64,000 nucleotides of DNA from a virus, in IMG/VR virus record IMGVR_UViG_3300029305_003918; one strand, written 5' to 3'. The notes beneath the pieces are model-generated. The model saw only the letters and a list, made by a program, of their open reading frames with translations. It did not search any database and had not been told where the DNA came from. The stretch's first letter is position 1, and each line of letters starts with the position of its first letter. Below are positions 1-43,442 of the stretch, one piece after another. The translations under genes and the position numbers were made by a program.

Positions 1-467
1 TCGCACCACTTGCGGTAAGTGGGCATCGGGGCGACCACATCACGAGCCATTGCCAGCGTGTCCCAAATTTCAACGCCCTTCGGGAAGAAGTAGCGATACT
101 TGGAGCAGGTTTCGTAACGCTGGGTCATCGTGCAGGAGCGATAGTCGAATCGGGCATTGTGGGCGATAACTGCCTTGATGTTGTACTTTTCGCAACAGTC
201 GCGGAACGCCTTGCGGATTTCGTACCACGTTGCAACCTTGATTTCGCCGCGTTCAATCTGTTCAAGATACTGCGGAATCTTGTGGGCGTAGTATGCGGAC
301 TGCATGAGTTCGGGACGGTCAAAGAAAATGTCGCGGTTGATGAAATTGAAGTTTTCGTAGGTGTTGCCGTGCTGGTCAATTACAGACCATGCGGTATTGT
401 AGTTGATGGGGCAATCCAGACCGTTGGCAGTTTCAGTATCCATCAGAATGTAGAAGTGGCGATTCAT
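1..467 (-). CDS. DnaQ-like DEDDh 3'-5' exonuclease, N-terminal part (the C-terminus runs off the left edge of the window)
   Basis: Minus-strand ATG at ~467, 9 nt after the conserved SD AAAGAGGTAA. The translation MNRHFYILMDTETANGLD... contains an Exo I motif (DTE) and an Exo II motif (AHNARFDY). The gene is not in the ORF track because it is truncated by the window edge. Confidence 0.65.
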   Translation of the reverse strand, partial: MNRHFYILMDTETANGLDCPINYNTAWSVIDQHGNTYENFNFINRDIFFDRPELMQSAYYAHKIPQYLEQIERGEIKVATWYEIRKAFRDCCEKYNIKAVIAHNARFDYRSCTMTQRYETCSKYRYFFPKGVEIWDTLAMARDVVAPMPTYRKWC

Positions 468-511
468 TTTGCATTACCTCTTTCTTGTTCTATTGCCTTT
501 CGACATTATCT

Positions 512-540
512 ATTATAGCAGATGTTGGGCTGTTTGTCAA
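512..540 (-). promoter_or_regulatory. Consensus sigma-70/sigma-A promoter for the exonuclease gene
   Basis: On the minus strand: TTGACA, then 17 bp, then TATAAT. An UP-like A-tract (AAAAAAAGTTTCAAAAAGG) lies upstream. Confidence 0.7.
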
Positions 541-570
541 TACCTTTTTGAAACTTTTTTTCGGGAAGAT

Positions 571-594
571 GGGGCAGGGTTTTACCCCTGCCCC
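571..594 (-). terminator. Intrinsic terminator hairpin after the 601-954 gene
   Basis: The palindrome GGGGCAGGG-TTTT-ACCCCTGCCCC lies directly 3' of the stop on the minus strand. Confidence 0.5.
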
Positions 595-600
595 GCAAGG

Positions 601-954
601 TCACTTCACCAGAGTGAAGTAAGCCTTGCGCTTCTCTTCCAGTCGCTGAACCTTGCCAGCTTCCACCAGCTGGCGAACCAGCGAAGCGACCTTCTGATTG
701 GAGAGCTGGGACAGCTCTTCATCAGCCTGCATCAGTTCAGACACAGTCACAGGCTGGGCGCAGGAAGCCAGCACTTCCAGCACATGGGACTTCACGCCCT
801 CATTCGCCTGCTGGGTCTTGGTGGGCTTCTTCTCCGCAGAGTTACGCTTGACCTGCTGGTCACGCAGAGCAGACAGCTTCTCACGCACTTCGGCAGACAG
901 AGCTTCGCAGTTCAGAGCAACTTCCAGAGCCTTCACATAAGTCATCTTTTCCAT
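601..954 (-). CDS. Hypothetical small protein (117 aa). It is a paralogue of the gene at 4142-4510 and has a possible winged-helix C-terminus.
   Basis: Track ORF with a consensus promoter plus SD upstream and a hairpin terminator downstream. Shares the motif SNQKVASLVRQLVE.GK..R.EEKRKAYF with the 4142-4510 product. Confidence 0.6.
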   Translation of the reverse strand: MEKMTYVKALEVALNCEALSAEVREKLSALRDQQVKRNSAEKKPTKTQQANEGVKSHVLEVLASCAQPVTVSELMQADEELSQLSNQKVASLVRQLVEAGKVQRLEEKRKAYFTLVK

Positions 955-1035
955 GATTCATTACCTCTTTCTTTCTTGTCGATTGGTGTTAGTGACTGTC
1001 GAGTGGGGCTGGCGCCTTGCCCTTTCGACATCCTT

Positions 1036-1064
1036 ATTGTACCACACCTTGCGGTGTTTGTCAA
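1036..1064 (-). promoter_or_regulatory. Promoter for the 601-954 gene
   Basis: TTGACA-N17-TACAAT with a TGG extended -10. The shared UP element and GTCGAAAGGG initial transcribed sequence are present. Confidence 0.65.
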
Positions 1065-1156
1065 GGGGTTTTTGAAACTTTTTTTTTGAGTTTTTATCCT
1101 GTGCGCTTCAGCGCCGAAGGGTTCCTCTTGCAGTTCCTTGCCCTCTTGACACTATC

Positions 1157-1185
1157 AGTATATCACATCTTGGCGGCTTTGTCAA
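1157..1185 (-). promoter_or_regulatory. Tandem promoter copy with no ORF of its own
   Basis: TTGACA-N17-TATACT with the UP element. Only ~60 nt separate it from the next promoter copy. Confidence 0.5.
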
Positions 1186-1266
1186 GGGTTTTTCAAAACT
1201 TTTTTTGAAGAAGTTTTGTCGACCAGCTTCACTCGGCATCACCTCAGTGCCCTCCTGACATTATCT

Positions 1267-1295
1267 ATTATACAGTATCAGACCCCAAATGTCTA
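1267..1295 (-). promoter_or_regulatory. Degenerate third tandem promoter copy
   Basis: TAGACA-N17-TATAAT. The same flanking CGACATTATCTATTATA context as the promoter at 512-540. Confidence 0.35.
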
Positions 1296-1344
1296 TTGAC
1301 AGATTGCACAAAGTTTCGGGAAAAAGTTTGTGCAGTTTGCCTAT

Positions 1345-1373
1345 TGACAAATTGCTCGAAAAATGGTATAATG
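1345..1373 (+). promoter_or_regulatory. Plus-strand consensus promoter convergent on (antisense to) the AbrB-like gene
   Basis: TTGACA-N17-TATAAT on the plus strand. It is preceded by a direct repeat of CTATTGACAnATTGC and an 8-bp inverted repeat TGCACAAA/TTTGTGCA. Confidence 0.55.
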
Positions 1374-1420
1374 GAAGGATACGCGGGAAAACCGGCGCCC
1401 ACGCTCGTGGGCGCGCGGGC

Positions 1421-1449
1421 GAAAAAAGAGTGACCTTGCGGTCACTCTT
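1421..1449 (-). terminator. Intrinsic terminator after the AbrB-like gene
   Basis: 9-bp stem AGAGTGACC/GGTCACTCT followed on the minus strand by TTTTTT. A second GC hairpin lies at 1394-1414. Confidence 0.6.
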
Positions 1450-1714
1450 CACAGCGGATGGGGTCATCGAGGTGGTTCACCATTTCGCAGATCAGTTCCT
1501 GCCGCTTTGCGGTGCTCAGGCTTTCCCACTCAGACTGCAGGCGGTCAAAGCTCAGATGCTCTTCATGGTAGGGCTTCATCACAAGCCCGTATTCCTTGTC
1601 CAGATACATCTCAAGGGGATCGCCCTCTTTGATGTTCAGGTTCCTGCGGATTTCCTTGGGGATAACAATGCGACCCAGTTCATCGACTCTTCTTACAATA
1701 CCAGTTGCTCTCAT
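1442..1714 (-). CDS. AbrB/SpoVT-family (swapped-hairpin) DNA-binding regulator, ~90 aa
   Basis: N-terminus MRATGIVRRVDELGRIVIPKEIRRNLNIKEGDPLEMY closely resembles AbrB/MazE N-domains. The start was chosen by SD spacing; the track's longer N-terminal extension overlaps the promoter. Confidence 0.65.
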   Translation of the reverse strand: MRATGIVRRVDELGRIVIPKEIRRNLNIKEGDPLEMYLDKEYGLVMKPYHEEHLSFDRLQSEWESLSTAKRQELICEMVNHLDDPIRCEE

Positions 1715-1744
1715 GTTCATTACCTCTTTCCTTTTGATGTACTT

Positions 1745-1773
1745 ATTATACCACATGTGAGAGGGGTTGTCAA
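1745..1773 (-). promoter_or_regulatory. Promoter for the AbrB-like gene
   Basis: TTGACA-N17(..TGG)-TATAAT. The -35 hexamer sits at the centre of the palindrome GGGGTTGTCAACCCC. Confidence 0.65.
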
Positions 1774-1781
1774 CCCCTTTC

Positions 1782-2255
1782 TCACAAATTTTTGCTTTCA
1801 GTCACAAAGTATTTTGCATCATAGCTCTGTAACAGTTTCTTAACATTCAGACTGTCCTGCTGAGTGGGACAATAGAAGTTAAACAAGAAATACTTTTCGA
1901 TGTTCACATAGTTGTAAGTGAATCCATAGTATTTGCAATCTTCAATCATCTGTTCTGCTTGTTCGGCAGGAATGGTGACTTCGACTTTCCAGAGTTTGTC
2001 TTTTCTTGCCTTTTCTTCAAAATACTTGACCACATACACACCCACAAGGTTACAGCCTGCGACAATCAGCGCCTTGGTGGCAAGAGGCAAATCGCACATC
2101 ATGTAGACAGTGACCACAGTGTAGAGTCCGAAGGCAACAGCGTTAACAATCGCGGCGACCCCTTTTCCGCATTTGATGGTTGCAATGCTCTTGACGGTCT
2201 GAATGATAACATTGGCGATGTTCAGCAGGATGAAGGTGAGAAGCAGAGTGTTCAT
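1782..2255 (-). CDS. Hypothetical membrane protein (157 aa; N-terminal transmembrane helices)
   Basis: Track ORF with hydrophobic N-terminal segments, an SD, and a consensus promoter at 2288-2316. Confidence 0.55.
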   Translation of the reverse strand: MNTLLLTFILLNIANVIIQTVKSIATIKCGKGVAAIVNAVAFGLYTVVTVYMMCDLPLATKALIVAGCNLVGVYVVKYFEEKARKDKLWKVEVTIPAEQAEQMIEDCKYYGFTYNYVNIEKYFLFNFYCPTQQDSLNVKKLLQSYDAKYFVTESKNL

Positions 2256-2287
2256 TGTGTTACTTCCTTTCGTCTTTCGTTGTACTT

Positions 2288-2316
2288 ATTATACCATAGG
2301 TTCGGCAGGTTGTCAA
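2288..2316 (-). promoter_or_regulatory. Promoter for the 1782-2255 gene
   Basis: TTGACA-N17(..TGG)-TATAAT plus the UP element. Confidence 0.65.
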
Positions 2317-2340
2317 TACCTTTTTGAAAATTTTTTTCTT

Positions 2341-2372
2341 GCAAAGGGCTGTCACACAGGACAGCCCTTTGC
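2341..2372 (-). terminator. Hairpin, possibly a terminator, after the 2352-2666 gene
   Basis: 12-bp stem GCAAAGGGCTGT/ACAGCCCTTTGC overlapping the stop codon. No clean U-tract follows; it abuts the next UP element. Confidence 0.35.
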
Positions 2373-2666
2373 ATACTTCTGATTCTTCTTGATTTTCTGT
2401 GCCATCCAGTTCGGCATGTGCAAGCCTGCGGACTTGTAAATCATGCCAGCCTGTTCAAGAGTGGGAATGTAAGCAGTCACCATGGTTTCGCTTTCCGGCA
2501 TCTTGACAATCAGCACACCAGTTTCGGACAGGCACTGCCGAGTGCCCTTGTCTCTGCGGAAACCTTCGCACACAATCTTGTCACCGAAGCCAATCTTCTG
2601 TGCAATGTACACACAGCGGTCAATGCGGTCTACCATAGCGTGTTTGGTCATTTCGATCTTCATCAT
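2352..2666 (-). CDS. Hypothetical protein (104 aa)
   Basis: Track ORF. Promoter at 2708-2736. A 12-bp-stem hairpin overlaps the stop codon. Confidence 0.55.
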   Translation of the reverse strand: MMKIEMTKHAMVDRIDRCVYIAQKIGFGDKIVCEGFRRDKGTRQCLSETGVLIVKMPESETMVTAYIPTLEQAGMIYKSAGLHMPNWMAQKIKKNQKYAKGCPV

Positions 2667-2836
2667 TTTTGTTTACCTTCCTTTCTGTTGTCCCTTTCGA
2701 CATTATTAGTATAGCACACTTTGGGCTGTTTGTCAACAGCTTTTTTCTGATTTTCCAGATTTTTTTTCATGGCATTCATTGCCGCCACTCTCATAGCGGT
2801 CTGACTTGCAACAATAGCACCGATCATGATACCCAT
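2663..2836 (-). CDS. Small hydrophobic protein (57 aa), uncertain
   Basis: SD AAGGAGTGA then ATG at ~2836. Its TGA stop overlaps the downstream gene's ATG (ATGA overlap). Its coding sequence runs across the promoter of the next gene. Confidence 0.35.
   Translation of the reverse strand: MGIMIGAIVASQTAMRVAAMNAMKKNLENQKKAVDKQPKVCYTNNVERDNRKEGKQK
2708..2736 (-). promoter_or_regulatory. Promoter for the 2352-2666 gene
   Basis: TTGACA-N17-TATACT. The spacer shares AACAGCCCAA with the promoters at 512 and 5092. Confidence 0.6.
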
Positions 2837-2865
2837 GTTTATCACTCCTTCATTTGATACATTTA

Positions 2866-2894
2866 TTATACCACAGGGGAAAGGCTTTGTCAAG
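2866..2894 (-). promoter_or_regulatory. Promoter for the 2663-2836 and 2352-2666 genes
   Basis: TTGACA-N17(..TGG)-TATAAT. The -35 is flanked by the inverted repeat GGGAAAGGC/GCCTTTTCCC. Confidence 0.6.
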
Positions 2895-3228
2895 CCTTTT
2901 CCCAAATTTCTTTTGCCATCTGATAGCGTCCGCTGTTGTCGCCATGTGCAGTGATGTAATCATGCCCAATGTGGCGACTTGCAATTTCAAATTCTTTCAA
3001 GCCGCCATCCCACAGGCACACCAGCAACTGAAGTAGATGCACAGGCAGGAACAGGAGCAGATACACAGGCCAGCTAATCTTGCAATCGCGGCGATAGTCG
3101 GGGTTGCCATCTGCAGAATAGGCACCAGCTTCGGTCAGAGAGTAGGAGCAGAGGGGACGAAGCCACTTGGCCGCAGGATTGTACTTGCCGATGTAGGTCC
3201 AGTCATTCAGAGAAATCTTCTTAGTCAT
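2890..3228 (-). CDS. Hypothetical protein (112 aa) with a hydrophobic central segment
   Basis: In-frame ATG at 3228 after an SD. The track's 199-aa version extends across the promoter and is rejected. The TGA stop is embedded in the -35 TTGACA of the next promoter. Confidence 0.55.
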   Translation of the reverse strand: MTKKISLNDWTYIGKYNPAAKWLRPLCSYSLTEAGAYSADGNPDYRRDCKISWPVYLLLFLPVHLLQLLVCLWDGGLKEFEIASRHIGHDYITAHGDNSGRYQMAKEIWEKA

Positions 3229-3265
3229 TGTAGTTACTTCCTTTCTTGTTCCTTTTGATGTACTT

Positions 3266-3294
3266 ATTATACCATGCTCAGAGGGATTTGTCAA
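3266..3294 (-). promoter_or_regulatory. Promoter for the 2890-3228 gene
   Basis: TTGACA-N17(..TGG)-TATAAT. A perfect 10-bp inverted repeat GCTCAGAGGG/CCCTCTGAGC brackets the -35. Confidence 0.65.
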
Positions 3295-3313
3295 CCCCTC
3301 TGAGCAACTTTTT

Positions 3314-3565
3314 TTAGGCATCTGCCCAGCTGATGTGCAGGCTGGATTCACACCAACGAACCTTGTAACCTGCTTCAACCATAGTGTTGTATACCTTGGA
3401 CTGGATGCGAGGGTCGGCACCGCTGAGACCATTGCTGTAATACATGGAGGTGTTGCCCTTGCTGGCATAGATCTGAATGGTGTCTTCAATCTTCTGCAGG
3501 TGCTTGTCAGCTTCGGCGGTCAGGTAGTTGGTGGTCATGGTCTTAGCTTCTTTGGCAGTCATCAT
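3314..3565 (-). CDS. Hypothetical protein (83 aa)
   Basis: Track ORF with promoter at 3616-3644 and an SD. Confidence 0.5.
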   Translation of the reverse strand: MMTAKEAKTMTTNYLTAEADKHLQKIEDTIQIYASKGNTSMYYSNGLSGADPRIQSKVYNTMVEAGYKVRWCESSLHISWADA

Positions 3566-3615
3566 AGTAGTAACTTCCTTTCTGTTGGGACTCTGTGTTC
3601 CCTTTCGATGGTTTA

Positions 3616-3644
3616 ATTATAGCAGATTCGGGATGATTTGTCAA
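3616..3644 (-). promoter_or_regulatory. Promoter for the 3314-3565 gene
   Basis: TTGACA-N17-TATAAT plus the UP element. Confidence 0.65.
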
Positions 3645-3743
3645 TACCTTTTTTGCAAGTTTTTCAAATTATTTTTTGCTGGCTGGTGCTCCTCGCGGAA
3701 ATTCGGCGAGTGGGCAAGCGCAGCGCCCGCCCACGCGCCGGCG

Positions 3744-3783
3744 AATAAAAAAAGAGTGGGGCTCAGGCTCTGAGCACCCACTC
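3744..3783 (-). terminator. Intrinsic terminator after the 3763-4020 gene
   Basis: Stem GAGTGGGGCTCAG/CTGAGCACCCACTC followed on the minus strand by TTTTTTTATT. Confidence 0.6.
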
Positions 3784-4020
3784 GGGGAGGTTCTCCCACA
3801 GTCGGGAGAGGTGGCAGGTGACCACCGTGGAGCGTTCCCACTCCACATCACCGCCATCCCAGAAGAAGCGGTAGTGGTCGATGGTGACCATGTCACCGTG
3901 GAAGGTGACCTTGACGGTCTCGTGAGAGGCCAGCCAAGAGCCCTTGCCAGTGAACAGGCAGTTGGACTGGGCTTCGAAACCGTAGTTGGCGATCAGGGTG
4001 GCAGCGATGGTGTTCTTCAT
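3763..4020 (-). CDS. Hypothetical protein (85 aa)
   Basis: ATG at 4020 after SD GAGGAGG. The start is trimmed from the track ORF, whose N-terminus overlaps the promoter. A terminator hairpin overlaps the stop. Confidence 0.5.
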   Translation of the reverse strand: MKNTIAATLIANYGFEAQSNCLFTGKGSWLASHETVKVTFHGDMVTIDHYRFFWDGGDVEWERSTVVTCHLSRLWENLPEWVLRA

Positions 4021-4065
4021 GGGGATCCTCCTCGTTGTTCGGGCTCTTGCCCTTTCGTTGATACT

Positions 4066-4094
4066 ATTATAGCACAGGATAGGCAGGTTGTCAA
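4066..4094 (-). promoter_or_regulatory. Promoter for the 3763-4020 gene
   Basis: TTGACA-N17-TATAAT. Directly abutted upstream by a 13-bp-stem hairpin. Confidence 0.65.
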
Positions 4095-4104
4095 GGGGTT
4101 TTTT

Positions 4105-4137
4105 CGGGGTGGTGAAAGTTTTTTTCACCACCCCGCG
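4105..4137 (-). terminator. Hairpin, possibly a terminator, after the 4142-4510 gene
   Basis: 13-bp stem CGGGGTGGTGAAA/TTTCACCACCCCG. The A-tract that follows doubles as the next UP element. Confidence 0.35.
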
Positions 4138-4141
4138 AGGG

Positions 4142-4510
4142 TCAGGCAAGGCGGAAATACGCCTTGCGCTTCTCCTCGATTCGGGTCAGCTTGCCCTCTT
4201 CCACAAGCTGACGGACAAGGCTTGCAACCTTCTGATTGCTCAGCTCGCCCAGCTCGGGAGCAAGGGTCTGAATCTCGCTTACGGTCTTGGCTTCCTGACC
4301 CTCAAGGGCAGTCAGGATAACCTGCTTGATGCCAACGTTGGCTTCCTGAACCTTGGTCGGCTTCTTCTCACCGCTGTTACGCTTCTCCTGCTGAGTACGC
4401 AGGGCAATCAGCTTTTCCGCGATCTCGGTGGGCAGGTTGCCGTTCTCAATGGCGTAGGTCAGGGCGGTCACGTAGGTCAGCTTCTCATTCTTCACATTGA
4501 TAGTAGTCAT
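4142..4510 (-). CDS. Hypothetical protein (122 aa), paralogue of the 601-954 product
   Basis: ATG at 4510 after AAAGAGGTAA. The C-terminal 60 aa are nearly identical in pattern to the 601-954 product. Confidence 0.6.
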   Translation of the reverse strand: MTTINVKNEKLTYVTALTYAIENGNLPTEIAEKLIALRTQQEKRNSGEKKPTKVQEANVGIKQVILTALEGQEAKTVSEIQTLAPELGELSNQKVASLVRQLVEEGKLTRIEEKRKAYFRLA

Positions 4511-4581
4511 AGCGATTACCTCTTTCTTTCCGCGCTCTTGGCGCTGTCGTTTTGTTTTGTTCCTTCCCTTGGAACATCTTA

Positions 4582-4610
4582 AGTATACCACAGGTCGGTC
4601 GGTTTGTCAA
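4582..4610 (-). promoter_or_regulatory. Promoter for the 4142-4510 gene
   Basis: TTGACA-N17(..TGG)-TATACT plus the UP element. Confidence 0.6.
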
Positions 4611-4661
4611 GCCCTTTTTGAAACTTTTTTCAAGTTTTTTTTCGGGGCTTGGGGAAGGGTA

Positions 4662-5066
4662 TCAGCCCTTCCCCTTGTCCTTGGGGGGTCGGTGGGCGGT
4701 CAGCGTAACCGAATAGGAAACGCCGTTCAGCACAAAGTCCACTTGACGCTCGGGGTTGACAACCTCGCAGTTGTCAAAGTCCTTCAATGCGTCGTGCAGG
4801 CAGTCCACCAATAGTCGCTTGTCCTCGTTGGGCTTGCGTTCTCGGGTTCGGGTCTTGCCTGCAGGGTCAACCACCTTGTGAGCCTTGGGTCGGTTCGCCT
4901 TGCGTGCTTCCTTCTCTTGCTCGGGTGGCAAGTCCCATGGGGTAGGGTTGCCCTTGTCGATCTGCTTGTCCCACCATGCCATTTCGGCTTCTTCCAGTGA
5001 GCAACCAGTCTTATCGACCATGGCGTCCAACCACTCAGGGGTAGGATACTGAAGTTCCTTAGCCAT
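4662..5066 (-). CDS. Hypothetical protein (134 aa)
   Basis: ATG at 5066 after SD AAAGGAGG. Promoter at 5092-5120. Confidence 0.5.
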   Translation of the reverse strand: MAKELQYPTPEWLDAMVDKTGCSLEEAEMAWWDKQIDKGNPTPWDLPPEQEKEARKANRPKAHKVVDPAGKTRTRERKPNEDKRLLVDCLHDALKDFDNCEVVNPERQVDFVLNGVSYSVTLTAHRPPKDKGKG

Positions 5067-5091
5067 GTTCTTGACCTCCTTTACATTAACT

Positions 5092-5120
5092 ATTATACAG
5101 CATCTTGGGCTGTTTGTCAA
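5092..5120 (-). promoter_or_regulatory. Promoter for the 4662-5066 gene
   Basis: TTGACA-N17-TATAAT. The -35 lies inside the 10-bp inverted repeat TTGTCAAGGG...CCCTTGACAA. Confidence 0.65.
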
Positions 5121-5151
5121 GGGGTTTTTACGCCCTTGACAAACTTTTTTT

Positions 5152-5721
5152 TCAATCGTTCAGATAGAAGTCAACCCACTTTTCAGCCTGTTCCAGATCA
5201 AACTCAACTTGATAGAAACGATCATTTTTCTGGAAAGTGTTCGGATGCTTGCGGATGTACTTGGAACGCAGGAAACTTTCCAAACCTTCTGCGTCAACTT
5301 CTCCGCAATCCCAAACTTTAGTAACTTCGATCGTTTTGATACCATACTTGCGATAGTAGCGCAGGTGTTCGCTCATGCGTTCTTCAATGGTTCGGGTGGT
5401 CGTGCCGACCTTTGACCAAACCAGATTGCCCTCTTCATTAAGCAGCCGCAGGAGATACACAAGCTGATTGCCCTCTACCTTGTCGCAGGAGTAAACCACG
5501 TTTGCGGTCGGCTTAAAGAAAGACTTTACCTTGTCAACAACGCCCTTGACAAACCGATCAACGATGAAATAGGCATCCTTGACAAAAGTCCAAACCGCAC
5601 GAACAACTTCATTTTCTTCCCACAGAGCAAGCATCTTTTTGAAGTTGTTGTTGCGTCCAGAAGTGGAAGTGCAAGCGCACATGCGGTCGTAGTAGAGATC
5701 CATCAGTTCCAGTGCATTCAT
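5152..5721 (-). CDS. Hypothetical protein (189 aa)
   Basis: ATG at 5721 after SD AAGGTGG. Promoter at 5779-5807. A faint GIY-YIG-like pattern is present but not claimed. Confidence 0.5.
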   Translation of the reverse strand: MNALELMDLYYDRMCACTSTSGRNNNFKKMLALWEENEVVRAVWTFVKDAYFIVDRFVKGVVDKVKSFFKPTANVVYSCDKVEGNQLVYLLRLLNEEGNLVWSKVGTTTRTIEERMSEHLRYYRKYGIKTIEVTKVWDCGEVDAEGLESFLRSKYIRKHPNTFQKNDRFYQVEFDLEQAEKWVDFYLND

Positions 5722-5778
5722 TGTGATTACCACCTTTGTCATTTTGTCTTGTCGGTGTTTCCCTCACCAACTGAGACT

Positions 5779-5807
5779 ATTATAGCATAGGTGGGCAGGA
5801 ATGTCAA
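5779..5807 (-). promoter_or_regulatory. Promoter for the 5152-5721 gene
   Basis: TTGACA-N17-TATAAT. Confidence 0.6.
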
Positions 5808-5842
5808 TAGGTTTTTGAAAAAAACTTTTTTTTCTTTTTCTG

Positions 5843-5871
5843 CAAAAAGGTATTGACATTTGATCCCTCTT
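5843..5871 (+). promoter_or_regulatory. Plus-strand consensus promoter that drives no identifiable ORF
   Basis: TTGACA-N17-TATAAT on the plus strand. It is back-to-back with the promoter at 5779-5807 and is transcribed into the 5878-6290 non-coding region. Confidence 0.6.
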
Positions 5872-5877
5872 GTAGTA

Positions 5878-6290
5878 TAATACTATCAGAGGTTGAGGGA
5901 AGCACAACCACTACGGGCACTGAGGATTCGCGATTACTCGGTGGCAAAACTCTCGCAGGTATCAAGAGCTTCCAGATCGCGGCGAACGGGTAGTGTCAGC
6001 TCGGTTAGCACGCTACGCAAGTAGAAGAGACGTTCAAATCGTCCCCCTAGCCTACGCGATCACTCCACCCCATACATCCACGGCGGTGAAATTCCGCCCG
6101 CGCAAGCGAAGACGAGAGTGGCTCTGTTTTGGGATGGGGCTTGTTTTTGTATGTTTATGCATTGTCGATGAATAATTATGCATGGCCTATGCGTGCGGGA
6201 ATACGGCTGGTGCACAGACTTGGCGCCCGTGCACCAGCCGGCCAGAGGGAAAAGAAATGCAGGATGTGTGGAGTCATCCTGCATTTCATT
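5878..6290 (+). ncRNA. Candidate structured non-coding RNA (~400 nt) driven by the plus-strand promoter at 5843-5871
   Basis: No ORF with an SD is present. Two GNRA-type tetraloop hairpins occur (CTAC-GCAA-GTAG near 6003-6014 and CGC-GCAA-GCG near 6089-6098). A T-loop-like GACG-TTCAAAT-CGTC lies at 6019-6033. Further stems are at 6072-6088 and 6197-6228. The region ends at the bidirectional hairpin at 6255-6286. Confidence 0.3.
6255..6286 (-). terminator. Intrinsic terminator after the nucleotidase and membrane-protein operon
   Basis: 12-bp stem AAATGCAGGATG/CATCCTGCATTT followed on the minus strand by CTTTTCCCTCT. Confidence 0.55.
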
Positions 6291-6292
6291 TA

Positions 6293-6532
6293 TCACTTGC
6301 TCTTACTGGAAACATTGGTCTTGAAGATAACCTGCAATGCATTGGTAGCCCAGAAGAACTGCCAGTAGTTCAGGTCAGGCAGGTTGAAGTCCAGCTTTAC
6401 TGCATTGTATCCCATCTGCACAACCCATGGCCCAGCGAAGATGACCAGCGCCAGCACAATCAGCGCCGCAATCACAGTCGCGCATCCAGAGTTATCACTA
6501 TTATAACTATTATAACTGAATCCCATAGTCAT
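6293..6532 (-). CDS. Small membrane protein (79 aa)
   Basis: Track ORF with a hydrophobic core and SD AAGAAAGAGAGG. Likely co-transcribed with the 6562-6999 gene. A strong terminator follows it. Confidence 0.5.
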   Translation of the reverse strand: MTMGFSYNSYNSDNSGCATVIAALIVLALVIFAGPWVVQMGYNAVKLDFNLPDLNYWQFFWATNALQVIFKTNVSSKSK

Positions 6533-6561
6533 TTACCTCTCTTTCTTGTTGCTCTCTGCAC

Positions 6562-6999
6562 TCAGCGAGTGAGTGCAGAGAGAGTGGCGAAGATAGTTTC
6601 GGGAGTGAACGCCTTGCCCTGTTCCCATGCGTTGCGGTTGCGCTCTTCATCATCGAAGAGAATGCCGCTCTTGCAGGTGTCCCACTTGTTCTGCCCATAG
6701 GGAACGATCTCCACCACATCCCAATGAACAGAAGGCAGATGCTTGGCGAGCCATGCGAGCTTGGCGGCTCGGACTGCTTCATCATAGGCAAGAGTGCTTT
6801 CCTTGCTACACCAGCTGATGATGCAGAGTTCGTGTCCCTGTGCCTGTGCCCTGTTGAGCATCCTTGCCAGCGTTGCCATGTGGTGCATGGGCTTTGCCAT
6901 TGCGTAGGGTGCAGGGTCGTAAGCTCGGAGCATCTGAAGCCATCCATCAACCGCATACAGGTCAGCAATCGTACCATCCATATCGAACCAGATCTTCAT
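6562..6999 (-). CDS. HAD-superfamily 5'(3')-deoxyribonucleotidase-like protein (NT5C family)
   Basis: N-terminus MKIWFDMDGTIADLY matches HAD motif I (DxDGT). A downstream DD motif is present. Size is ~145 aa. Confidence 0.6.
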   Translation of the reverse strand: MKIWFDMDGTIADLYAVDGWLQMLRAYDPAPYAMAKPMHHMATLARMLNRAQAQGHELCIISWCSKESTLAYDEAVRAAKLAWLAKHLPSVHWDVVEIVPYGQNKWDTCKSGILFDDEERNRNAWEQGKAFTPETIFATLSALTR

Positions 7000-7046
7000 T
7001 CTCATTACCTCTTTCTGTGTTTTGTCTTGTCCCTTTCGACACTATT

Positions 7047-7075
7047 AGTATAGCACGTCTTAGGGTATTTGTCAA
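7047..7075 (-). promoter_or_regulatory. Promoter for the nucleotidase and small membrane protein operon
   Basis: TTGACA-N17-TATACT plus the UP element and the GTCGAAAGGG initial transcribed sequence. Confidence 0.6.
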
Positions 7076-7190
7076 GCCTTTTCCGCAAACTTTTTTATCT
7101 TTTTTTTCGAGGGGGAAGATCGCTCTTCCCTCCTCTGTGCATAGACTTGCTTTTCTTTCCTCTTGACGAGCTTCTTAAACCTTGCGCTGT

Positions 7191-7499
7191 TCATCCTCTT
7201 GCCCTCCTCATGGCTTCGAGCTTCTGCTGGATGCGGTCGAACTTCGCCAACAGTTTGGCATAGCGGCGATCCTGCCAACCCCAGTACATCTGTGCAACAG
7301 CATCCCAGAATGCGCGGGTACTGTAATAGCACTCATGTTCCACCTTGAAAGTGGCAGGTACAGGCTTCTTTTTTTCTGCTTCCAGAAGCCTTGCCATCAC
7401 TCTGTTTGCACCTTTGCGAGTGCGGAACAGACCTACTCTGTGTGCGGCGGTGCGAGTGCGAGTACTTTCTACCTTCGAATACTTCATGAGGATAAACAT
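7191..7499 (-). CDS. Hypothetical basic protein (102 aa)
   Basis: ATG at 7499 after SD GAAAGGAG. Promoter at 7538-7566. Confidence 0.5.
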   Translation of the reverse strand: MFILMKYSKVESTRTRTAAHRVGLFRTRKGANRVMARLLEAEKKKPVPATFKVEHECYYSTRAFWDAVAQMYWGWQDRRYAKLLAKFDRIQQKLEAMRRARG

Positions 7500-7537
7500 T
7501 GCTTTGATCTCCTTTCGTTGTTCCCTTGACACTACCT

Positions 7538-7566
7538 ATTATAGCAGGTTTCAGGATGTTTGTCAA
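7538..7566 (-). promoter_or_regulatory. Promoter for the 7191-7499 gene
   Basis: TTGACA-N17-TATAAT. Confidence 0.6.
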
Positions 7567-7647
7567 TAGGTTTATACAGATTATTTTTGTTAATTATTTG
7601 TTGTGTCTCTTGTTTGTTGGCTAGCTAGGCCCGTGCTCGGTGACCTC

Positions 7648-7926
7648 TTAGATGTCGTAAGAGGTACAACCGAACATGAAGCCCACACCATCAAGCACCA
7701 CTTCATGGTAGAAGTCACCAGTGCCCAGCTCGTCGATGATGTCCTGCACCTGCTCAACCAGCTCAGGCATGGTATAGTCACGGAACTGCTCACACCAGTC
7801 ATCATCGAAGCCGATGAAGTCGATGAAATCCACACAGATTTCAGTGTCGGATTCGCGACGGATTTCAACATCGCCAGCCTGTTCGAGGGTTTCCAGCATG
7901 GTCATCAGCATTTCAGCAGTCATCAT
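7648..7926 (-). CDS. Hypothetical acidic protein (92 aa)
   Basis: Track ORF. Promoter at 7978-8006. SD GAAAGGAAG. Confidence 0.5.
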   Translation of the reverse strand: MMTAEMLMTMLETLEQAGDVEIRRESDTEICVDFIDFIGFDDDWCEQFRDYTMPELVEQVQDIIDELGTGDFYHEVVLDGVGFMFGCTSYDI

Positions 7927-7977
7927 TGTAGTTACTTCCTTTCTTTCAGCTGGGCTCTTGTCCCTTGCTGTGATTAT

Positions 7978-8006
7978 AGTATACTACAACTGACCGCGTT
8001 TGTCAA
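7978..8006 (-). promoter_or_regulatory. Promoter for the 7648-7926 gene (the right-most unit of the array)
   Basis: TTGACA-N17-TATACT plus the UP element. Confidence 0.6.
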
Positions 8007-8282
8007 TAGGTTTTTACAATTTTTTTTATTAAGTTTTAGGATAACACTTAACATGATGCATTCAATGCATTCGCGACGCTTTTGTTGCATGACAGGTTTA
8101 TTGCGCAAACTCGGGGCGTGCCGACCATGCACGCCCCGACGAGCGTTCCAGATGCTGGCAGTACTCTTGTATTTTTTTCTGGTATGTAAATCCATTCAAC
8201 ATTCACCCTCCGGGCACCCTTTCGGGAAAAAAATTATTTTGAAAGAGAAAAGGGGTTATACCTGGTCACAATTCCCACTAAA

Positions 8283-9059
8283 TCAAATTTGAAATCTGGA
8301 AGACGGAGATATATCATCAAAAGTGAGATTGGAAAGTTTAACGGTATAGGGAATTCTAATTAAAGGGATCCCTTGCTCTTTACAGTATACGTTCTTGCGC
8401 TCATCCCGCTCTTTTTGAATTTGTAATTTTTCTTCTCCGCCCCATGCTTCAACAGCCTTAAAATGCTGCTCTCCATCATATTCAATTAAATAAGATAACT
8501 GTCTATTTGAATCAAAAACCGCAAAATCAAACTTTAAACCTGTAGACAGCTCTTCAATGGAATATTGCTCTTCAAATATTACATCAAGATCTTGCAGCAT
8601 TGTCCGCACGTATAGTTCACCAGCAGATACTTGAGAACAGCCACACGATACAGTATATTTATATCCATCTCTATCGCTACCGCGCTTATATCCAGTTAAA
8701 TGGTCTTTTCGCACTGAAACCACATTGCCGCAATCACATTGACATTTAACATAAGAAGTATATCTTCCACCCGCGGTTTTATAAGGTAAATCATATTCAA
8801 TCACTGTTAATTTACCAAACCTATCTCCCATTTTTAAGGCTTGATGACCTCTACCACCTGAAATTTCTCCTGCGGCGATTCTGCAATCAACACAACCCTT
8901 TTCAACATCTTCTTTCCGCAAAATAGCTTCCTTGCCGCATTGATTGCATTTACATAGCAGTGGTGTCGAATGACTCTTCCAAGGTGTCTCTTCTTTAGAA
9001 GGACGCCGAATAACAGTTAATGTCTTAAAAGTTTGACCAATCATTTCTTGCCATTTCAT
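8283..9059 (-). CDS. Zinc-ribbon-rich protein with a C-terminal Vsr/DUF559-like (PD-(D/E)xK) endonuclease domain; possible homing endonuclease
   Basis: Several CxxC pairs. The C-terminal segment LKFDFAVFD...LIEYDGEQH...IPLIRIPY is paralogous to the 13919-14275 product. The start was chosen at a TAATG overlap with the upstream gene. Confidence 0.45.
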   Translation of the reverse strand: MKWQEMIGQTFKTLTVIRRPSKEETPWKSHSTPLLCKCNQCGKEAILRKEDVEKGCVDCRIAAGEISGGRGHQALKMGDRFGKLTVIEYDLPYKTAGGRYTSYVKCQCDCGNVVSVRKDHLTGYKRGSDRDGYKYTVSCGCSQVSAGELYVRTMLQDLDVIFEEQYSIEELSTGLKFDFAVFDSNRQLSYLIEYDGEQHFKAVEAWGGEEKLQIQKERDERKNVYCKEQGIPLIRIPYTVKLSNLTFDDISPSSRFQI

Positions 9060-9457
9060 TATAGATGACATTCTCCTCTCATATAACAATCCATGTGACA
9101 TTGACCACTCTCTGCTTCACAGGGCAGTAAACTTTTCAACACTTCTTCCACATGTCGGCTTTCCGCAAATTTCTGTAGTTCCACCCATCCATGGCGAAGC
9201 AATACTTGCTTCGCCACATAGTGGTTTTTTTCTCTTTCCCAATGCGCGCACTCTTCTTCTGTAGGATAGTCGCTCCAATCTAATTTTTCATCTGGGACTC
9301 TTTTGTACTGGCCAGTATTTACCTCTTTAAACATACTCGCTAGTACTTTATGTTTACGCTTAAAGGGATTTTCTAGTCCCATCGTCGGTGCAACCTCTCG
9401 CATAAATTTTTCTTCTGCGCGCAGAATCGTGCTACCGACGGAGTTAAGGATGAACAT
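9059..9457 (-). CDS. Hypothetical Cys/His-containing protein (132 aa)
   Basis: Track ORF in the leftward operon driven by the promoter at 9821-9849. Confidence 0.4.
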   Translation of the reverse strand: MFILNSVGSTILRAEEKFMREVAPTMGLENPFKRKHKVLASMFKEVNTGQYKRVPDEKLDWSDYPTEEECAHWEREKNHYVAKQVLLRHGWVELQKFAESRHVEEVLKSLLPCEAESGQCHMDCYMRGECHL

Positions 9458-9798
9458 CAGTGTACCCCATCCAAGTGACGAGCAATGCTGTCATCACCTT
9501 CATAAGTAATAAAATTCTCAATTGGTCCGCCGTATCGCTCACCTACAGAATAGCGGTACCAAGAATTTGGACTCACAAATACAGTAATGCTCTCCATCTT
9601 GCCACTCTGGTCACCCAACACAAACCAGAATACATCATCGTGTACAAATGCATATTCATCGATATAGCTCAATGCGTACCCCTTATCCACGATGTAATAA
9701 CTTGTGCCTTTGGTTGCTCCAATTGCAACAAACAATAGACCGACCGCAATTGCCACAATTAAAATCAGACTAATGATCTTCTGTACCATTGAAGTCAT
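9457..9798 (-). CDS. Membrane-anchored hypothetical protein (~113 aa)
   Basis: SD AAAGGAG then ATG at ~9798. The track's longer start falls inside the -10 element. A transmembrane helix is present near the N-terminus. Confidence 0.45.
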   Translation of the reverse strand: MTSMVQKIISLILIVAIAVGLLFVAIGATKGTSYYIVDKGYALSYIDEYAFVHDDVFWFVLGDQSGKMESITVFVSPNSWYRYSVGERYGGPIENFITYEGDDSIARHLDGVH

Positions 9799-9820
9799 CT
9801 CCTTTATCATTTCTATATAC

Positions 9821-9849
9821 ATTATATCAAATTTTTTTTAAATTTTCAA
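9821..9849 (-). promoter_or_regulatory. Leftward promoter for the 9798-8283 operon
   Basis: On the minus strand: TTGAAA-N17-TATAAT. It is divergent from the rightward promoter ~20 bp away. Confidence 0.5.
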
Positions 9850-9867
9850 ATGGGCGATCTTTTTTAC

Positions 9868-9896
9868 TTGACTCATGAAAATTTTTGTGGTATAAT
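9868..9896 (+). promoter_or_regulatory. Rightward promoter at the start of the late or structural module
   Basis: TTGACT-N17-TATAAT, followed by SD GAAGGAGG. Confidence 0.55.
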
Positions 9897-9913
9897 AGAG
9901 GCATAGAAGGAGG

Positions 9914-10984
9914 TTGATTATTATAATCAAGCTAGATTATACGATTGAATCTCCTCAAGAGCGAAATGAATTGGTGAAATAGATTTTAACAGAGACTCCC
10001 GACCCAAGCGAGCAATATCTGGAAATCCTTGCTGATTATTTGGTTCTTTGTATGGAGAAACAAGAGAAGAAGGAGCGAAAGATTCTCACCGACAACCGTA
10101 TGGCGACTGTCAATAAACGAGAAACATCTTTCGAGGGTCTTGTTGGCCAGTTGGAGAATGGCGAAGATGGTATATATAATTTAGTAACGAACGATAAGAA
10201 TGTAATATTTTAGCCGAAAGTAACAATTACGAAAAAAGATTTAGAAGAAATTGAGCCATTACGTCAGTTGCGCGACAGCATAGCATATTGGGAAAAGCTG
10301 TCTAAAACTGCGACTGGGCGAGCAGCCTATATTATCAAATCAACTATTATCGAATTGCGGAAGGATCAATATCTTATTAAAAACGCCTACCGCCAACCAA
10401 TTGTTGCGCGAAATATTACAAGAAATATCGGACACTATATTAAACTCCCATGGGATGAATGGGTAGATGAAAATGGAGAAATCCAGTATGAAGGTGTGTC
10501 CTTTATCAATCCCGTTGTTATTAGCACTATTTTATGCAATTATTCTAAACTAAAAGAAGGATGCTATGGCAGGTTCGAGGGTGATACCTGGTATATGATG
10601 GAAGACTTTGATAGATTAGTAGATAATTCACTTGCCGGCTATCCTTTATACCGTCGTATTGTAGAATATAAAATTGACGGGCAATCTAATGTTGATATCA
10701 AGGAAATGATTGAAAAGGAATTCGGCTTCACTCATTCGCTCGAATATATTTCTTCGTTATGGCGTAATAAAATTCCAAAGCTCATTGCCTCTTATTATAC
10801 AGATGAATGGCTGACCTGGTATTATACTGAAAAAGAATATGGGAAGTGGAAGAAATGTACTAGGTGTGGGCAAATTAAGTTAGCCCATTCAAGATTTTTT
10901 TCCATAAACAAAGGTTCAAGAGATGGATGGTATTCTTTGTGTAAGTGTTGCCGGAATGCCAAGAACAAGAAGGCAAAGGAGTAA
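9914..10984 (+). CDS. Hypothetical protein (~355 aa) with a C-terminal zinc ribbon; contains 2 in-frame TAG codons; the start codon is uncertain
   Basis: The frame of track ORF 10268-10984 continues upstream through TAGs at ~9980 and ~10211 with no TAA or TGA. It begins right after the SD GAAGGAGG with a TTG/ATT/ATA candidate start. The first in-frame ATG is at 10052. The protein ends in CTRCGQ...CKCCRN. Confidence 0.4.
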
Positions 10985-10989
10985 TGTGA

Positions 10990-12162: not shown

Positions 12163-12163
12163 T

Positions 12164-25276: not shown

Positions 25277-25305
25277 TTGACAAACAAAAAATTTTCTGGT
25301 ATAAT
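25277..25305 (+). promoter_or_regulatory. Internal consensus promoter upstream of the chaperone-like and tape-measure genes
   Basis: TTGACA-N17(..TGG)-TATAAT on the plus strand, immediately after the TGA stop of the preceding gene. Confidence 0.5.
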
Positions 25306-37366: not shown

Positions 37367-37448
37367 GTTGGTCTATTTCGGCTAATATATCACACGATTT
37401 TTCTATAAAAAGATAGAAGTGTTTTGAGTAAAAGGAGATGAAACATGG

Positions 37449-43400: not shown

Positions 43401-43442
43401 TAGGAATCAACTCCCTCTTCAGGATGGGAATCTTACTATTAA
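37449..43442 (+). CDS. Giant distal-tail or tail-associated protein (~1997 aa; more than 20 TAGs), probably a Dit/Tal-like baseplate hub
   Basis: ATG at 37449 after SD AAAGGAG. Track ORFs 37890, 38472, 38955, 40521, 40920, 41490, 42462 and 43050 are all in frame 0 and joined by TAGs only. No internal SD+ATG was seen at the junctions. The C-terminus carries SHSYT-like repeats. Confidence 0.6.

Follow-up and report, generated by a model that had tools for sequence, protein, structure and literature searches.

A stretch of 64,000 nucleotides from IMG/VR virus record IMGVR_UViG_3300029305_003918 (the window) carries, at positions 1–8030, a dense array of near-consensus promoters, most of them on the minus strand and in front of small genes. 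We consider it probable that this region is an early ('host-takeover' or accessory) gene array that depends on the host RNA polymerase and is functionally like the host-takeover module of phage SPO1. Both strands of the window were searched for TTGACA-N17-TATAAT with at most one mismatch, and 100 dinucleotide shuffles served as the control. The search returned 25 matches against 1.08 expected (shuffle maximum 5), and 19 of these fell within 1–8030, 17 on the minus strand and 2 on the plus strand. An earlier note on this DNA had described a dense one-strand array of maximal-strength, host-type promoters before small genes, and the count (19 matches in 8 kb where about one is expected in 64 kb) bears it out. 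The −35 boxes of the minus-strand promoters, numbered P1 to P17, start at 8006, 7566, 7075, 5807, 5120, 4610, 4094, 3644, 3294, 2893, 2736, 2316, 1773, 1295, 1185, 1064 and 540; those of the plus-strand promoters start at 1344 and 5853.

The 19 array promoters are built to one plan. Their spacer is exactly 17 bp in every case, the hexamers are perfect (12/12 positions) in 12, and an extended −10 TG is present in 15, with the spacer typically ending in TGTGn (TGTGnTATAAT). Alignment of the array promoters revealed an UP-like A-tract upstream, AAAAAAGTTTCAAAAA-GG/CC followed by TTGACAAA, and a conserved start region that reads (A)TGTCGAAAGGG or ACATCAAAAGG, or in its wider form ...ATGTCGAAAGGG(A)C or ...ACATCAAAAGGA. 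The five-element description given before (A-tract, TTGACA, 17-bp spacer with its usual TG, −10 box and start region) is accurate, each element being visible in the alignment. A Shine–Dalgarno (SD) sequence and a start codon lie downstream of 15 of the 17 minus-strand promoters. Some spacers fall into subfamilies within the window, AACAGCCCAA being shared by three promoters (P5, P11 and P17) and ACCTGCC by two, which fits duplication or exchange of promoter modules; the AACAGCCCAA subfamily had no exact match elsewhere in IMG/VR. A logo of 447 distinct promoters from the clade of related phages displays UP A-tracts, again including AAAAAAGTTTCAAAAA, then TTGACAAa, tgTGnTATAAT, a Y-A start 6–7 nt past the −10 box and a purine-rich leader.

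The array is conserved among relatives, which were collected by a terminase-based search of IMG/VR (80 loci, terminase identity 70–94%). In 47 of the 47 loci with a full 10-kb upstream flank it occupies the same position and strand, with promoters concentrated in the first 6–8 kb; at least ten promoters are present in 36 of these loci, and 581 of 719 promoter matches lie on the array strand. Across the clade the array is located upstream of a sigma-like gene and the terminase gene, 2–4 kb from the terminase, and is transcribed divergently. The same pattern is found in contigs of metagenome-assembled genomes (MAGs) from GTDB, in the isolated Enterococcus phage VRE9_4, which has 17 promoters in 7.1 kb, and in the published phAss-1 genome (OQ749652), where a promoter array stands at the right end. 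The array is genuine and not an artefact, because dozens of independent metagenome contigs, phAss-1 and VRE9_4 have the same array in the same location. The concern that it might be an artificial or assembly-derived construct is answered by the same recurrence, in independent contigs of two collections and in these two phages. The window terminase (12290–13906) shares 47–48% identity with its counterparts in Geobacillus virus E3 and several 134–142 kb Enterococcus phages, and 45% with that of phAss-1. With that terminase affinity (47%) and the same array in VRE9_4, the proposed resemblance to the host-takeover region of large Firmicutes phages stands.

The promoters are conserved; the genes that they drive are hypervariable and shuffled. 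Promoter-proximal open reading frames (ORFs) of the clade, 594 in number, fall into 233 clusters. Among the genes of the window only the NT5C-like gene is widespread (19 loci); others occur in 2–9 loci, and six ORFs, five of which belong to the array, are singletons. In the closest relative (L001/L088/L089; terminase 94% identical) only five pieces of the array recur, in a different order, and a promoter module there is sometimes joined to a different gene than in the window. Comparison with related phages, as the earlier note had asked, therefore shows a varying number of promoters and a differing order of cassettes (L001/L088/L089), and the shared spacers, together with modules sitting at different cassettes in the closest relative, favour its idea of promoter-module duplication. 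The promoter family is alike in low-GC arrays (L038–L042 and VRE9_4) and in high-GC arrays. A megablast of 1–8030 against 50,697 phage records gave no match.

The array is also set apart by composition and by its use of the genetic code. GC content is 45–54% in 1–8000 and 30–40% elsewhere, with a sharp step at ~8.0–8.3 kb. The difference is almost wholly a matter of third codon positions: GC content at the first, second and third positions (GC1/GC2/GC3) is 53/37/64 in array genes versus 49/37/27 in late genes, and codon use differs accordingly (CTG 57% versus 2%, TTA 1% versus 39%, CAG 94% versus 38%). The array genes contain no in-frame TAG in 1841 codons and stop at TGA (13) or TAA (2); in the late region, 105 in-frame TAGs are spread over 24 ORFs, and the stops are TAA (22) or TGA (2). 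When TAG is treated as sense, plus-strand ORF coverage of 10–64 kb rises from 80% to 96%. Aligned to non-recoded relatives, TAG positions correspond to Gln in 113 of 245 cases, the next most frequent residue being K (26). The sequence evidence is that the window phage reads TAG as sense in its late genes, most often where relatives have Gln (code 15).

Recoding varies within the clade, many relatives being recoded and some not, and the array is found in all. In every locus tested the GC3 of the array equals or exceeds that of the late genes, the excess ranging from 0 (VRE9_4) to +55 points. Orthologues of the NT5C-like gene span a GC3 of 31–83% that tracks lineage, with stable GC1 and GC2, which speaks for adjustment specific to each lineage and not for one foreign origin. 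The tRNAs found in the searched loci were limited to tRNA-Asn and tRNA-Arg in two loci and to Lys, Met, Gln(UUG) and Tyr in phAss-1. In the latter (L115, record 112256–114595), tRNA-Lys(UUU), tRNA-Met, tRNA-Gln(UUG) and tRNA-Tyr are encoded downstream of the array; two of them, Lys-UUU and Gln-UUG, read AAA and CAA, A-ending codons that the late genes favour, which is suggestive only. As a separate observation, the TAG-recoded locus L018 has near the array, on its minus strand at ~7570, a gene with a consensus promoter whose product resembles release factor 2 (SPF and GGQ motifs).

The sigma-factor-like gene between array and terminase has a sigma-A-type promoter of its own (9868–9896; gene with promoter 9868–10984, plus strand; phrog_5767, 2e-37) and holds in-frame TAGs at 9980 and 10211. 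Its start is uncertain (TTG 9914, ATT 9920 or ATA 9923) and possibly non-ATG. Across ~90 loci this gene holds 1–10 in-frame TAGs wherever the relative is recoded and 0 where it is not.

Strong hairpins (−16 to −34 kcal/mol) lie 3′ of 12–13 of the 15 array genes. Canonical hairpin-plus-U terminators number only three for ~16 units: 6254–6287 (a 13-bp stem and TTTTCCCTCT), 3747–3783 (a hairpin and TTTTTTT) and 1422–1447 (GAGTGAC-CGCAA-GGTCACTC and TTTTTT), all on the minus strand. Each is paired with a second, GC-rich hairpin (6204–6240, 3693–3744 and 1382–1421, respectively), and these three double terminators split the array into four blocks. At 9–10 other gene ends a strong hairpin is followed by 0–4 U per 10 nt, and the A-tract of the next promoter follows instead of a U tract. 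The previous description of promoter–gene–terminator units consequently fits the three canonical terminators and fails for the 9–10 units that end in U-less hairpins. Late-region terminators in the window are canonical with long U tracts, so the U-less design looks array-specific.

In four cases the hairpin is fused with the next promoter, whose −35 hexamer is either part of the loop (3294, 2893 and 1773) or forms the 3′ arm (5120). Within the clade, 10% of the 447 promoters have the −35 box inside a perfect stem of at least 8 bp, compared with 1.5% of permuted controls. Because the stems around these −35 boxes vary in sequence among promoters, a hairpin is a better reading than a protein operator.

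Clade promoters have a median leader of ~25 nt, which sets a constant spacing between −10 box and SD. Among 78 clade promoters whose leader is long or undetermined, 28–36% form an anti-SD duplex at +9 to +15 that reaches −6 kcal/mol or better, versus less than 5% at other positions. In the window, several promoters (7075, 3644, 2736, 1064, 540 and others) have GAAAGGG ~5–12 nt from the predicted +1, lacking a start codon of its own, and the real SD 20–60 nt further on; such dual-SD leaders, with a 5′-proximal SD-like purine element and a real SD, belong to at least nine window promoters. This arrangement is reminiscent of the 5′ mRNA stabilisers of the STAB-SD and polypurine kind in Bacillus (Agaisse & Lereclus 1996; Hue, Cohen & Bechhofer 1995; as cited in PMC3997798), in which likewise an SD-like purine element near the transcript 5′ end precedes the real SD. 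By analogy, the 5′ GAAAGGG may act as such a stabiliser, or it may be a relic of a promoter–SD module of fixed geometry. A 5′-terminal stem-loop was also considered as a clade-wide feature and rejected (9.6% versus 6.7% in shuffles).

The units of the array, all on the minus strand, are described here from P1 leftwards. Genes of at least 57 amino acids (aa) with a private promoter number 15. The earlier count of at least 16 genes, each with a private promoter, is right for nearly all of them; the exceptions are gene 6293–6532, which shares a promoter, promoters 1295 and 1185, which have no ORF, and a doubtful 57-aa ORF. P1 (7978–8006; 11/12, TTGACA-17-TATACT), the array's first promoter, precedes its first gene (7648–7926), which encodes a very acidic orphan of 92 aa (isoelectric point (pI) 4.1; 24 D+E versus 3 K+R). 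P2 (7538–7566; 12/12 with TG) is followed by a gene for a basic 102-aa orphan (7191–7499; pI 10.7), downstream of which lies a possible 40-aa ORF (7072–7194). The leader of P3 (7047–7075; 11/12 with TG) combines a 5′ GAAAGGG with a second, real SD, and its unit has two genes. The first (6562–7005) encodes a 147-aa NT5C-type 5′(3′)-deoxyribonucleotidase-like protein (PF06941, E 1.7e-5; phrog_2643, 7e-11); the second (6293–6532), for a 79-aa membrane protein, has its own SD and depends on the promoter of the first.

The second block opens with P4 (5779–5807; 12/12 with TG) and a gene for a 189-aa protein with a T5orf172 domain (5152–5721; PF10544, E 7.6e-6). The −35 box of P5 (5092–5120; 12/12) is the 3′ arm of hairpin 5112–5144; the gene behind it (4662–5066) encodes a 134-aa orphan and is followed by a U-less hairpin at 4646–4680. 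At P6 (4582–4610; 11/12 with TG) the transcript 5′ end can fold as GUUCC-AAGGGAA-GGAAC. The adjacent gene (4142–4510) specifies a 122-aa protein with a weak winged-helix-like match, is a paralogue of gene 601–954 (60% identity) and ends before a U-less hairpin at 4105–4135. P7 (4066–4094; 12/12 with TG) precedes a gene for an 85-aa orphan (3763–4020) with a GC3 of 84%.

P8 (3616–3644; 12/12 with TG) stands before a gene (3314–3565) whose 83-aa product belongs to phrog_5321 (function unknown). P9 (3266–3294; 12/12 with TG) has its −35 box in the loop of hairpin 3270–3320 (−25.6 kcal/mol), and its gene (2890–3228; 112 aa, one hydrophobic segment) places its TGA stop within the next −35 hexamer, TTGACA (2890–2893). 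That hexamer belongs to P10 (2865–2893; 12/12 with TG) and lies in the loop of hairpin 2876–2903. The 57-aa ORF downstream (2663–2836) is doubtful because it reads through the next promoter, P11 (2708–2736; 11/12 with TG; spacer AACAGCCCAA). The 104-aa orphan encoded at 2352–2666 has family members in 9 loci, and its gene is followed by a U-less hairpin at 2341–2372. P12 (2288–2316; 12/12 with TG), a module that sits at another cassette in L001, precedes the gene for a 157-aa membrane protein (1782–2255; 7 loci), whose stop codon is in the hairpin stem around the next −35 box. This box, that of P13 (1745–1773; 12/12 with TG), lies in the loop of hairpin 1753–1789; the gene that follows (1442–1717; ~91 aa) encodes an AbrB/MazE/SpoVT-type DNA-binding domain (PF04014, 1.5e-12).

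P14 (1267–1295; 11/12, TAGACA) has an operator half-site in place of the A-tract and no convincing ORF, and P15 (1157–1185; 11/12 with TG) has no ORF and ~70 nt of non-coding sequence after it. At the positional equivalent of P15 in L086 (8160–8277), an array promoter stands directly before tRNA-Asn(GTT). P16 (1036–1064; 11/12 with TG) has a long leader (~80 nt) and precedes the 117-aa paralogue of 4142–4510 (gene 601–954, followed by a U-less hairpin at 562–611). Last comes P17 (512–540; 12/12 with TG), before a gene cut by the window edge (1–467; at least 155 aa) for a DEDDh exonuclease-like protein (2.6e-5; phrog_20187, 1.7e-22, a PHROG common to two VRE9_4 array genes). The array continues past the window's left edge; in L086 it extends ~3 kb beyond the homologous exonuclease gene. 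A PDB sequence search with six array proteins, and PADLOC and NCBIfam searches with ten, returned nothing informative except DEDDh. The annotated content (NT5C-like, T5orf172, AbrB-type and DEDDh-like proteins, a very acidic protein, orphans and small membrane proteins) matches what early regions of phages usually contain.

The two plus-strand promoters belong to other arrangements. The one at 1344–1372 (12/12 with TG) diverges from P14, and between the two lies an operator-like palindrome (1304–1335), TTGCACAAAG-N13-TTTGTGCAG, that is conserved in the clade; its TTTGTGCAG half-site is 8 nt upstream of the −35 box at 1344. In the palindrome region (1296–1349; TTGCACAAAG/CTTTGTGCAA) the half-site stands exactly 8 nt upstream of a −35 box and replaces the UP A-tract. 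Promoters bearing the half-site form a subclass found across the clade, and by their layout they appear to be regulated. Genes for a small lipoprotein-like protein, which make up the largest cargo family (26 loci), often stand behind this subclass in relatives; the window has no such gene.

The other plus-strand promoter (5853–5881; 12/12) is convergent with the upstream block and precedes a candidate structured non-coding RNA of ~260 nt (5889–6150, plus strand), ORF-free and antisense to the array. Within it are a segment that resembles the T-arm and D-loop of a tRNA, a tetraloop hairpin in place of the 'anticodon' arm and a 42-nt three-way-junction core. A homologue with its own promoter is present in L001 (3200–3490), with nine compensatory pairs between the two; the core recurs in L003/L004 (L003 3970–4260) with a covarying closing stem, and the RNA was found only in the window and these loci. 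Rfam searches at the gathering threshold and with E-value cut-offs as high as 10 gave no family for any array RNA. Similarity to Y RNA (YrlA, RF02553) was rejected, the window copy giving no match and the L003 copy 24.3 bits against a threshold of 69, and ARAGORN, with default and relaxed settings, called no consistent tRNA or transfer-messenger RNA in 5800–6300 or 1000–1300. Theta ribozymes, which are like that of hepatitis delta virus (HDV), flank tRNAs in recoded gut phages (PMC10879173); inspection of the conserved 3′ domain of the window RNA revealed no obvious HDV-like fold.

A second class of sigma-A-like promoter, class II, has a near-invariant AT-rich spacer, TTGACAcAAAAAAATTTTTgTGATATAAT, and occurs in the window at 9821–9849 (minus) and 25277–25305 (plus) and in phAss-1 (L115) at 998–13810. 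Class II promoters each have a canonical terminator before them, are located outside the GC-rich array and may constitute a different temporal class. The copy at 9821–9849 drives three low-GC3 genes between the array and the sigma gene (9457–9822, 9059–9457 and 8283–9101). The last of these (minus strand; HNH/homing-endonuclease-like, phrog_559, DUF2726) probably represents a mobile insertion; it is located between the array and the region of divergent promoters.

The remainder of the window forms a structural module of the phage with few intergenic gaps, and a search of the window for a late-promoter motif found none. Its longest ORFs include 25953–37328 (plus; 3792 codons, 42 TAGs), which is of tape-measure size (compare the 3149-aa tape measure protein of phAss-1), and 37428–43442 (plus; 2005 codons, 18 TAGs); both arise by fusion when TAG is read as sense. 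A further ORF, 54391–61704 (plus), encodes a 2437-aa protein with BspA-type leucine-rich repeats and has no TAG. The source phage is probably a large siphovirus-type phage (135–200 kb) of gut Bacillota, most likely of Clostridia.

From the promoter anatomy, array conservation, cargo turnover and split in code and codon use seen at the level of sequence, we propose the following mechanism, in which promoter activity and hairpin function are predicted. On entry of the DNA, the host sigma-A holoenzyme would find ~19 promoters that combine all known determinants of strength (A-tract UP element, TTGACA, 17-bp spacer, TRTG extended −10 and TATAAT). With that many maximal-strength promoters, each small gene would be transcribed alone, at a maximal rate and independently of the units upstream. 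The transcripts would begin with purine-rich leaders carrying a strong SD, many window leaders being longer and keeping a 5′-proximal GAAAGGG, and the units would be set apart by GC-rich, mostly U-less hairpins, several of them fused to the next promoter. The genes themselves would suit an unmodified host, with TGA or TAA as stops, a GC3 of 64% and no TAG in frame. Given the in-frame TAGs of the sigma-like gene, the switch from early to late expression would probably be gated by a suppressor tRNA. Repeated promoter modules may meanwhile serve as recombination joints while the cargo turns over quickly.

More tentatively, and as a possibility to which we give somewhat less than even weight, the genome may be written in two dialects. 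An early module for the naive host would use sigma-A promoters, the standard code and GC-rich codons, and the remainder, for a reprogrammed cell, would use AT-rich codons, TAG as Gln and a phage sigma-like factor. The switch between them would be hard-wired through a sigma-like gene that needs TAG suppression, and the standard parts of the early module (UP element, −35 box in the hairpin of the previous unit, TRTG −10 and fixed-distance SD) would double as recombination joints. If this is true, the array is a fast-shuffling cassette platform for host-takeover or anti-defence genes across a largely uncultured phage family.

Several points weigh against an early, host-polymerase-driven takeover array or against parts of the mechanism. 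The timing is deduced from promoter type, position and analogy, and from the lack of TAG in array genes of a recoded genome. No array protein matched a characterised host-shut-off or anti-defence protein in searches of PHROG or, for subsets of the proteins, PDB, PADLOC and NCBIfam. Independent termination of each unit is doubtful because most hairpins have no U tract, and the 5′ hairpin and the TGTCGAA motif are confined to the lineage of the window phage and are not clade-wide. No suppressor tRNA(CUA) was found in the 64-kb window or in the ~80 loci examined, inside or beside the arrays. Array codons are presumably matched to the host, but MAG bin labels, mostly Lachnospiraceae, Oscillospiraceae and other Bacillota, are too mixed to assign one. 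Finally, non-coding promoter spacers co-vary with array GC3 (Spearman 0.67 over 53 non-independent loci), so codon selection alone is insufficient to account for the GC island, part of which may be a regional composition effect.

The earlier note had called the units moron-like, and in the strict sense they would then be lysogenic-conversion cassettes of a temperate phage, promoter–gene–terminator units acquired horizontally, whose expression from the prophage would benefit the host. The array does share with morons autonomous, private promoters, a regional GC content unlike that of its flanks and of the remaining genome, and hypervariable cargo, and PHROG files three of the products under 'moron, auxiliary metabolic gene and host takeover'. 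Unlike morons, however, which are scattered as insertions between conserved prophage genes, the units are arrayed in one dedicated block whose position is fixed clade-wide, and most lack canonical terminators, of which there are only three. Lysogeny has no support either: neither an integrase nor a repressor was seen in the 64-kb window, and the cultured array-bearing relatives were obtained as phages by plating on Enterococcus. Orthologous cargo, moreover, has a GC3 that tracks each phage lineage and indicates no single foreign donor. The moron label is accordingly unsupported, and we hold this origin to be very improbable. Even less credible, to the point of being scarcely tenable, is a recent acquisition of the high-GC block from a GC-richer phage or host, or a chimeric assembly or synthetic construct, with promoters that reflect the donor. 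The sharp GC step at ~8.0–8.3 kb (from 45–54% to 30–40%), 'optimised'-looking codons such as CTG (57% versus 2%) and CAG (94% versus 38%) and the failure of megablast to match known phages would all be expected of such a block. Yet the junction and the GC step recur in dozens of independent assemblies (rumen, human gut and others; two collections), the GC3 excess is continuous from 0 to +55 points among lineages with orthologous cargo, and low-GC and high-GC arrays have the same promoter family. Conservation largely refutes a foreign or chimeric block.

The promoters could instead act mainly as binding sites on the DNA, as a sink that draws RNA polymerase away from host genes or as recombination or packaging signals, with the small ORFs largely incidental. 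Promoters are indeed far better conserved than genes, those at 1295 and 1185 have no ORF, consensus sites reach an extreme density and promoter modules lie at cassette junctions in rearranged relatives. Against this, nearly every promoter is followed by a strong SD at a fixed distance and an ORF with coding-type GC1/GC2/GC3; the cargo is conserved at the protein level across lineages (NT5C at 19 loci, the lipoprotein-like family at 26); and the strong codon bias of the array is expected only of translated genes. We judge it unlikely as the main function, and sequestration of RNA polymerase could be an additional effect. Early promoters of phage phi29 are shut down by Spo0A~P, and a similar shutdown in sporulating hosts might be read from TGTCGAA in the start region, which is identical to the Spo0A-box consensus. 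Of six TGTCGAA copies in the window, four lie at +6 after the −10 box (promoters 7075, 2736, 1064 and 540; motif at 7041, 2702, 1030 and 505, minus strand), and many Clostridia, the probable hosts, form spores. The motif TGNCGAA, however, takes that position in only ~6 of the 447 clade promoters; the four copies come from one duplicated promoter subfamily, so their shared position is explicable by descent; and the motif overlaps the SD-like GAAAGG element. Spo0A control is, in our estimate, decidedly unlikely. The reading that we prefer thus remains an early array of small genes transcribed by the host polymerase.

The array provides a sequence-level regulatory map for large phages of gut and rumen that form a widespread family with hardly any annotation; all array genes of phAss-1 and VRE9_4 are listed as 'hypothetical'. 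Its hundreds of small, rapidly exchanged early genes, for which strong expression is predicted, are a natural place to seek host shut-off and anti-defence functions in Clostridia. For recoded phages it yields predictions about the order of the programme: TAG-free, GC3-rich array genes, then a TAG-containing sigma-like gene, then TAG-rich late genes. Array promoters are also compact candidates for very strong portable parts in Bacillota. The GC3 split within one genome, up to ~55 points in relatives, is unusual in size.

The finding is not categorically new, because strong early promoter arrays are classic in phages such as SPO1, T4 and T5. In the searchable literature we found no description of the family-wide array, the fused hairpin/−35 design, the large GC3 island or their coupling with a TAG-recoded sigma-like gene; coverage of the recoded-phage literature was incomplete, and part of this may be known. 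In TAG-recoded (code 15) gut phages, late structural genes have in-frame TAG and other genes are compatible with the standard code (PMC10607447; PMC10879173). One of them, phAss-1 (OQ749652), shares with the window phage the terminase lineage (45%), the NT5C cargo gene and the promoter array at its right end; the word 'promoter' has 0 occurrences in the paper that describes it (PMC10607447). A tblastn search with the window's NT5C-like protein, the most widespread cargo, returned only phAss-1 and two gut contigs, and no homology to the T5 enzyme was shown.

That enzyme is a 5′-deoxyribonucleotidase encoded in the pre-early region of coliphage T5, and the presence of an NT5C-like gene as the most widespread window cargo is a likeness between the two. 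The pre-early and early promoters of T5 and the early promoters of T4 are very strong sigma-70 promoters with A/T-rich upstream sequence and conserved initially transcribed sequences, and they serve many small early genes; unlike the window phage, these phages have Gram-negative hosts. The closest functional parallel is SPO1, whose host-takeover genes are small and early and have the kind of promoter and ribosome-binding site seen in highly expressed genes (PMC6873191). Its host-takeover module, made up of genes 37–60 in the terminal redundancy, is, like the window array, a cluster of small genes mostly of unknown function behind strong host-type promoters, and in this large virulent Firmicutes phage the host polymerase reads those promoters early in infection (PMC6873191), as is predicted for the window array. 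SPO1 belongs to an unrelated lineage (a myovirus of the Herelleviridae), and no sequence homology between the cargoes was detected. To our knowledge, a codon-usage island, TAG recoding of the remaining genome and −35 boxes inside hairpins are not known from SPO1. In work of 1998 by Stewart and colleagues, SPO1 is said to have ~12 promoters for 24–26 genes arranged in operons; the window array, in contrast, comes close to one promoter per gene.

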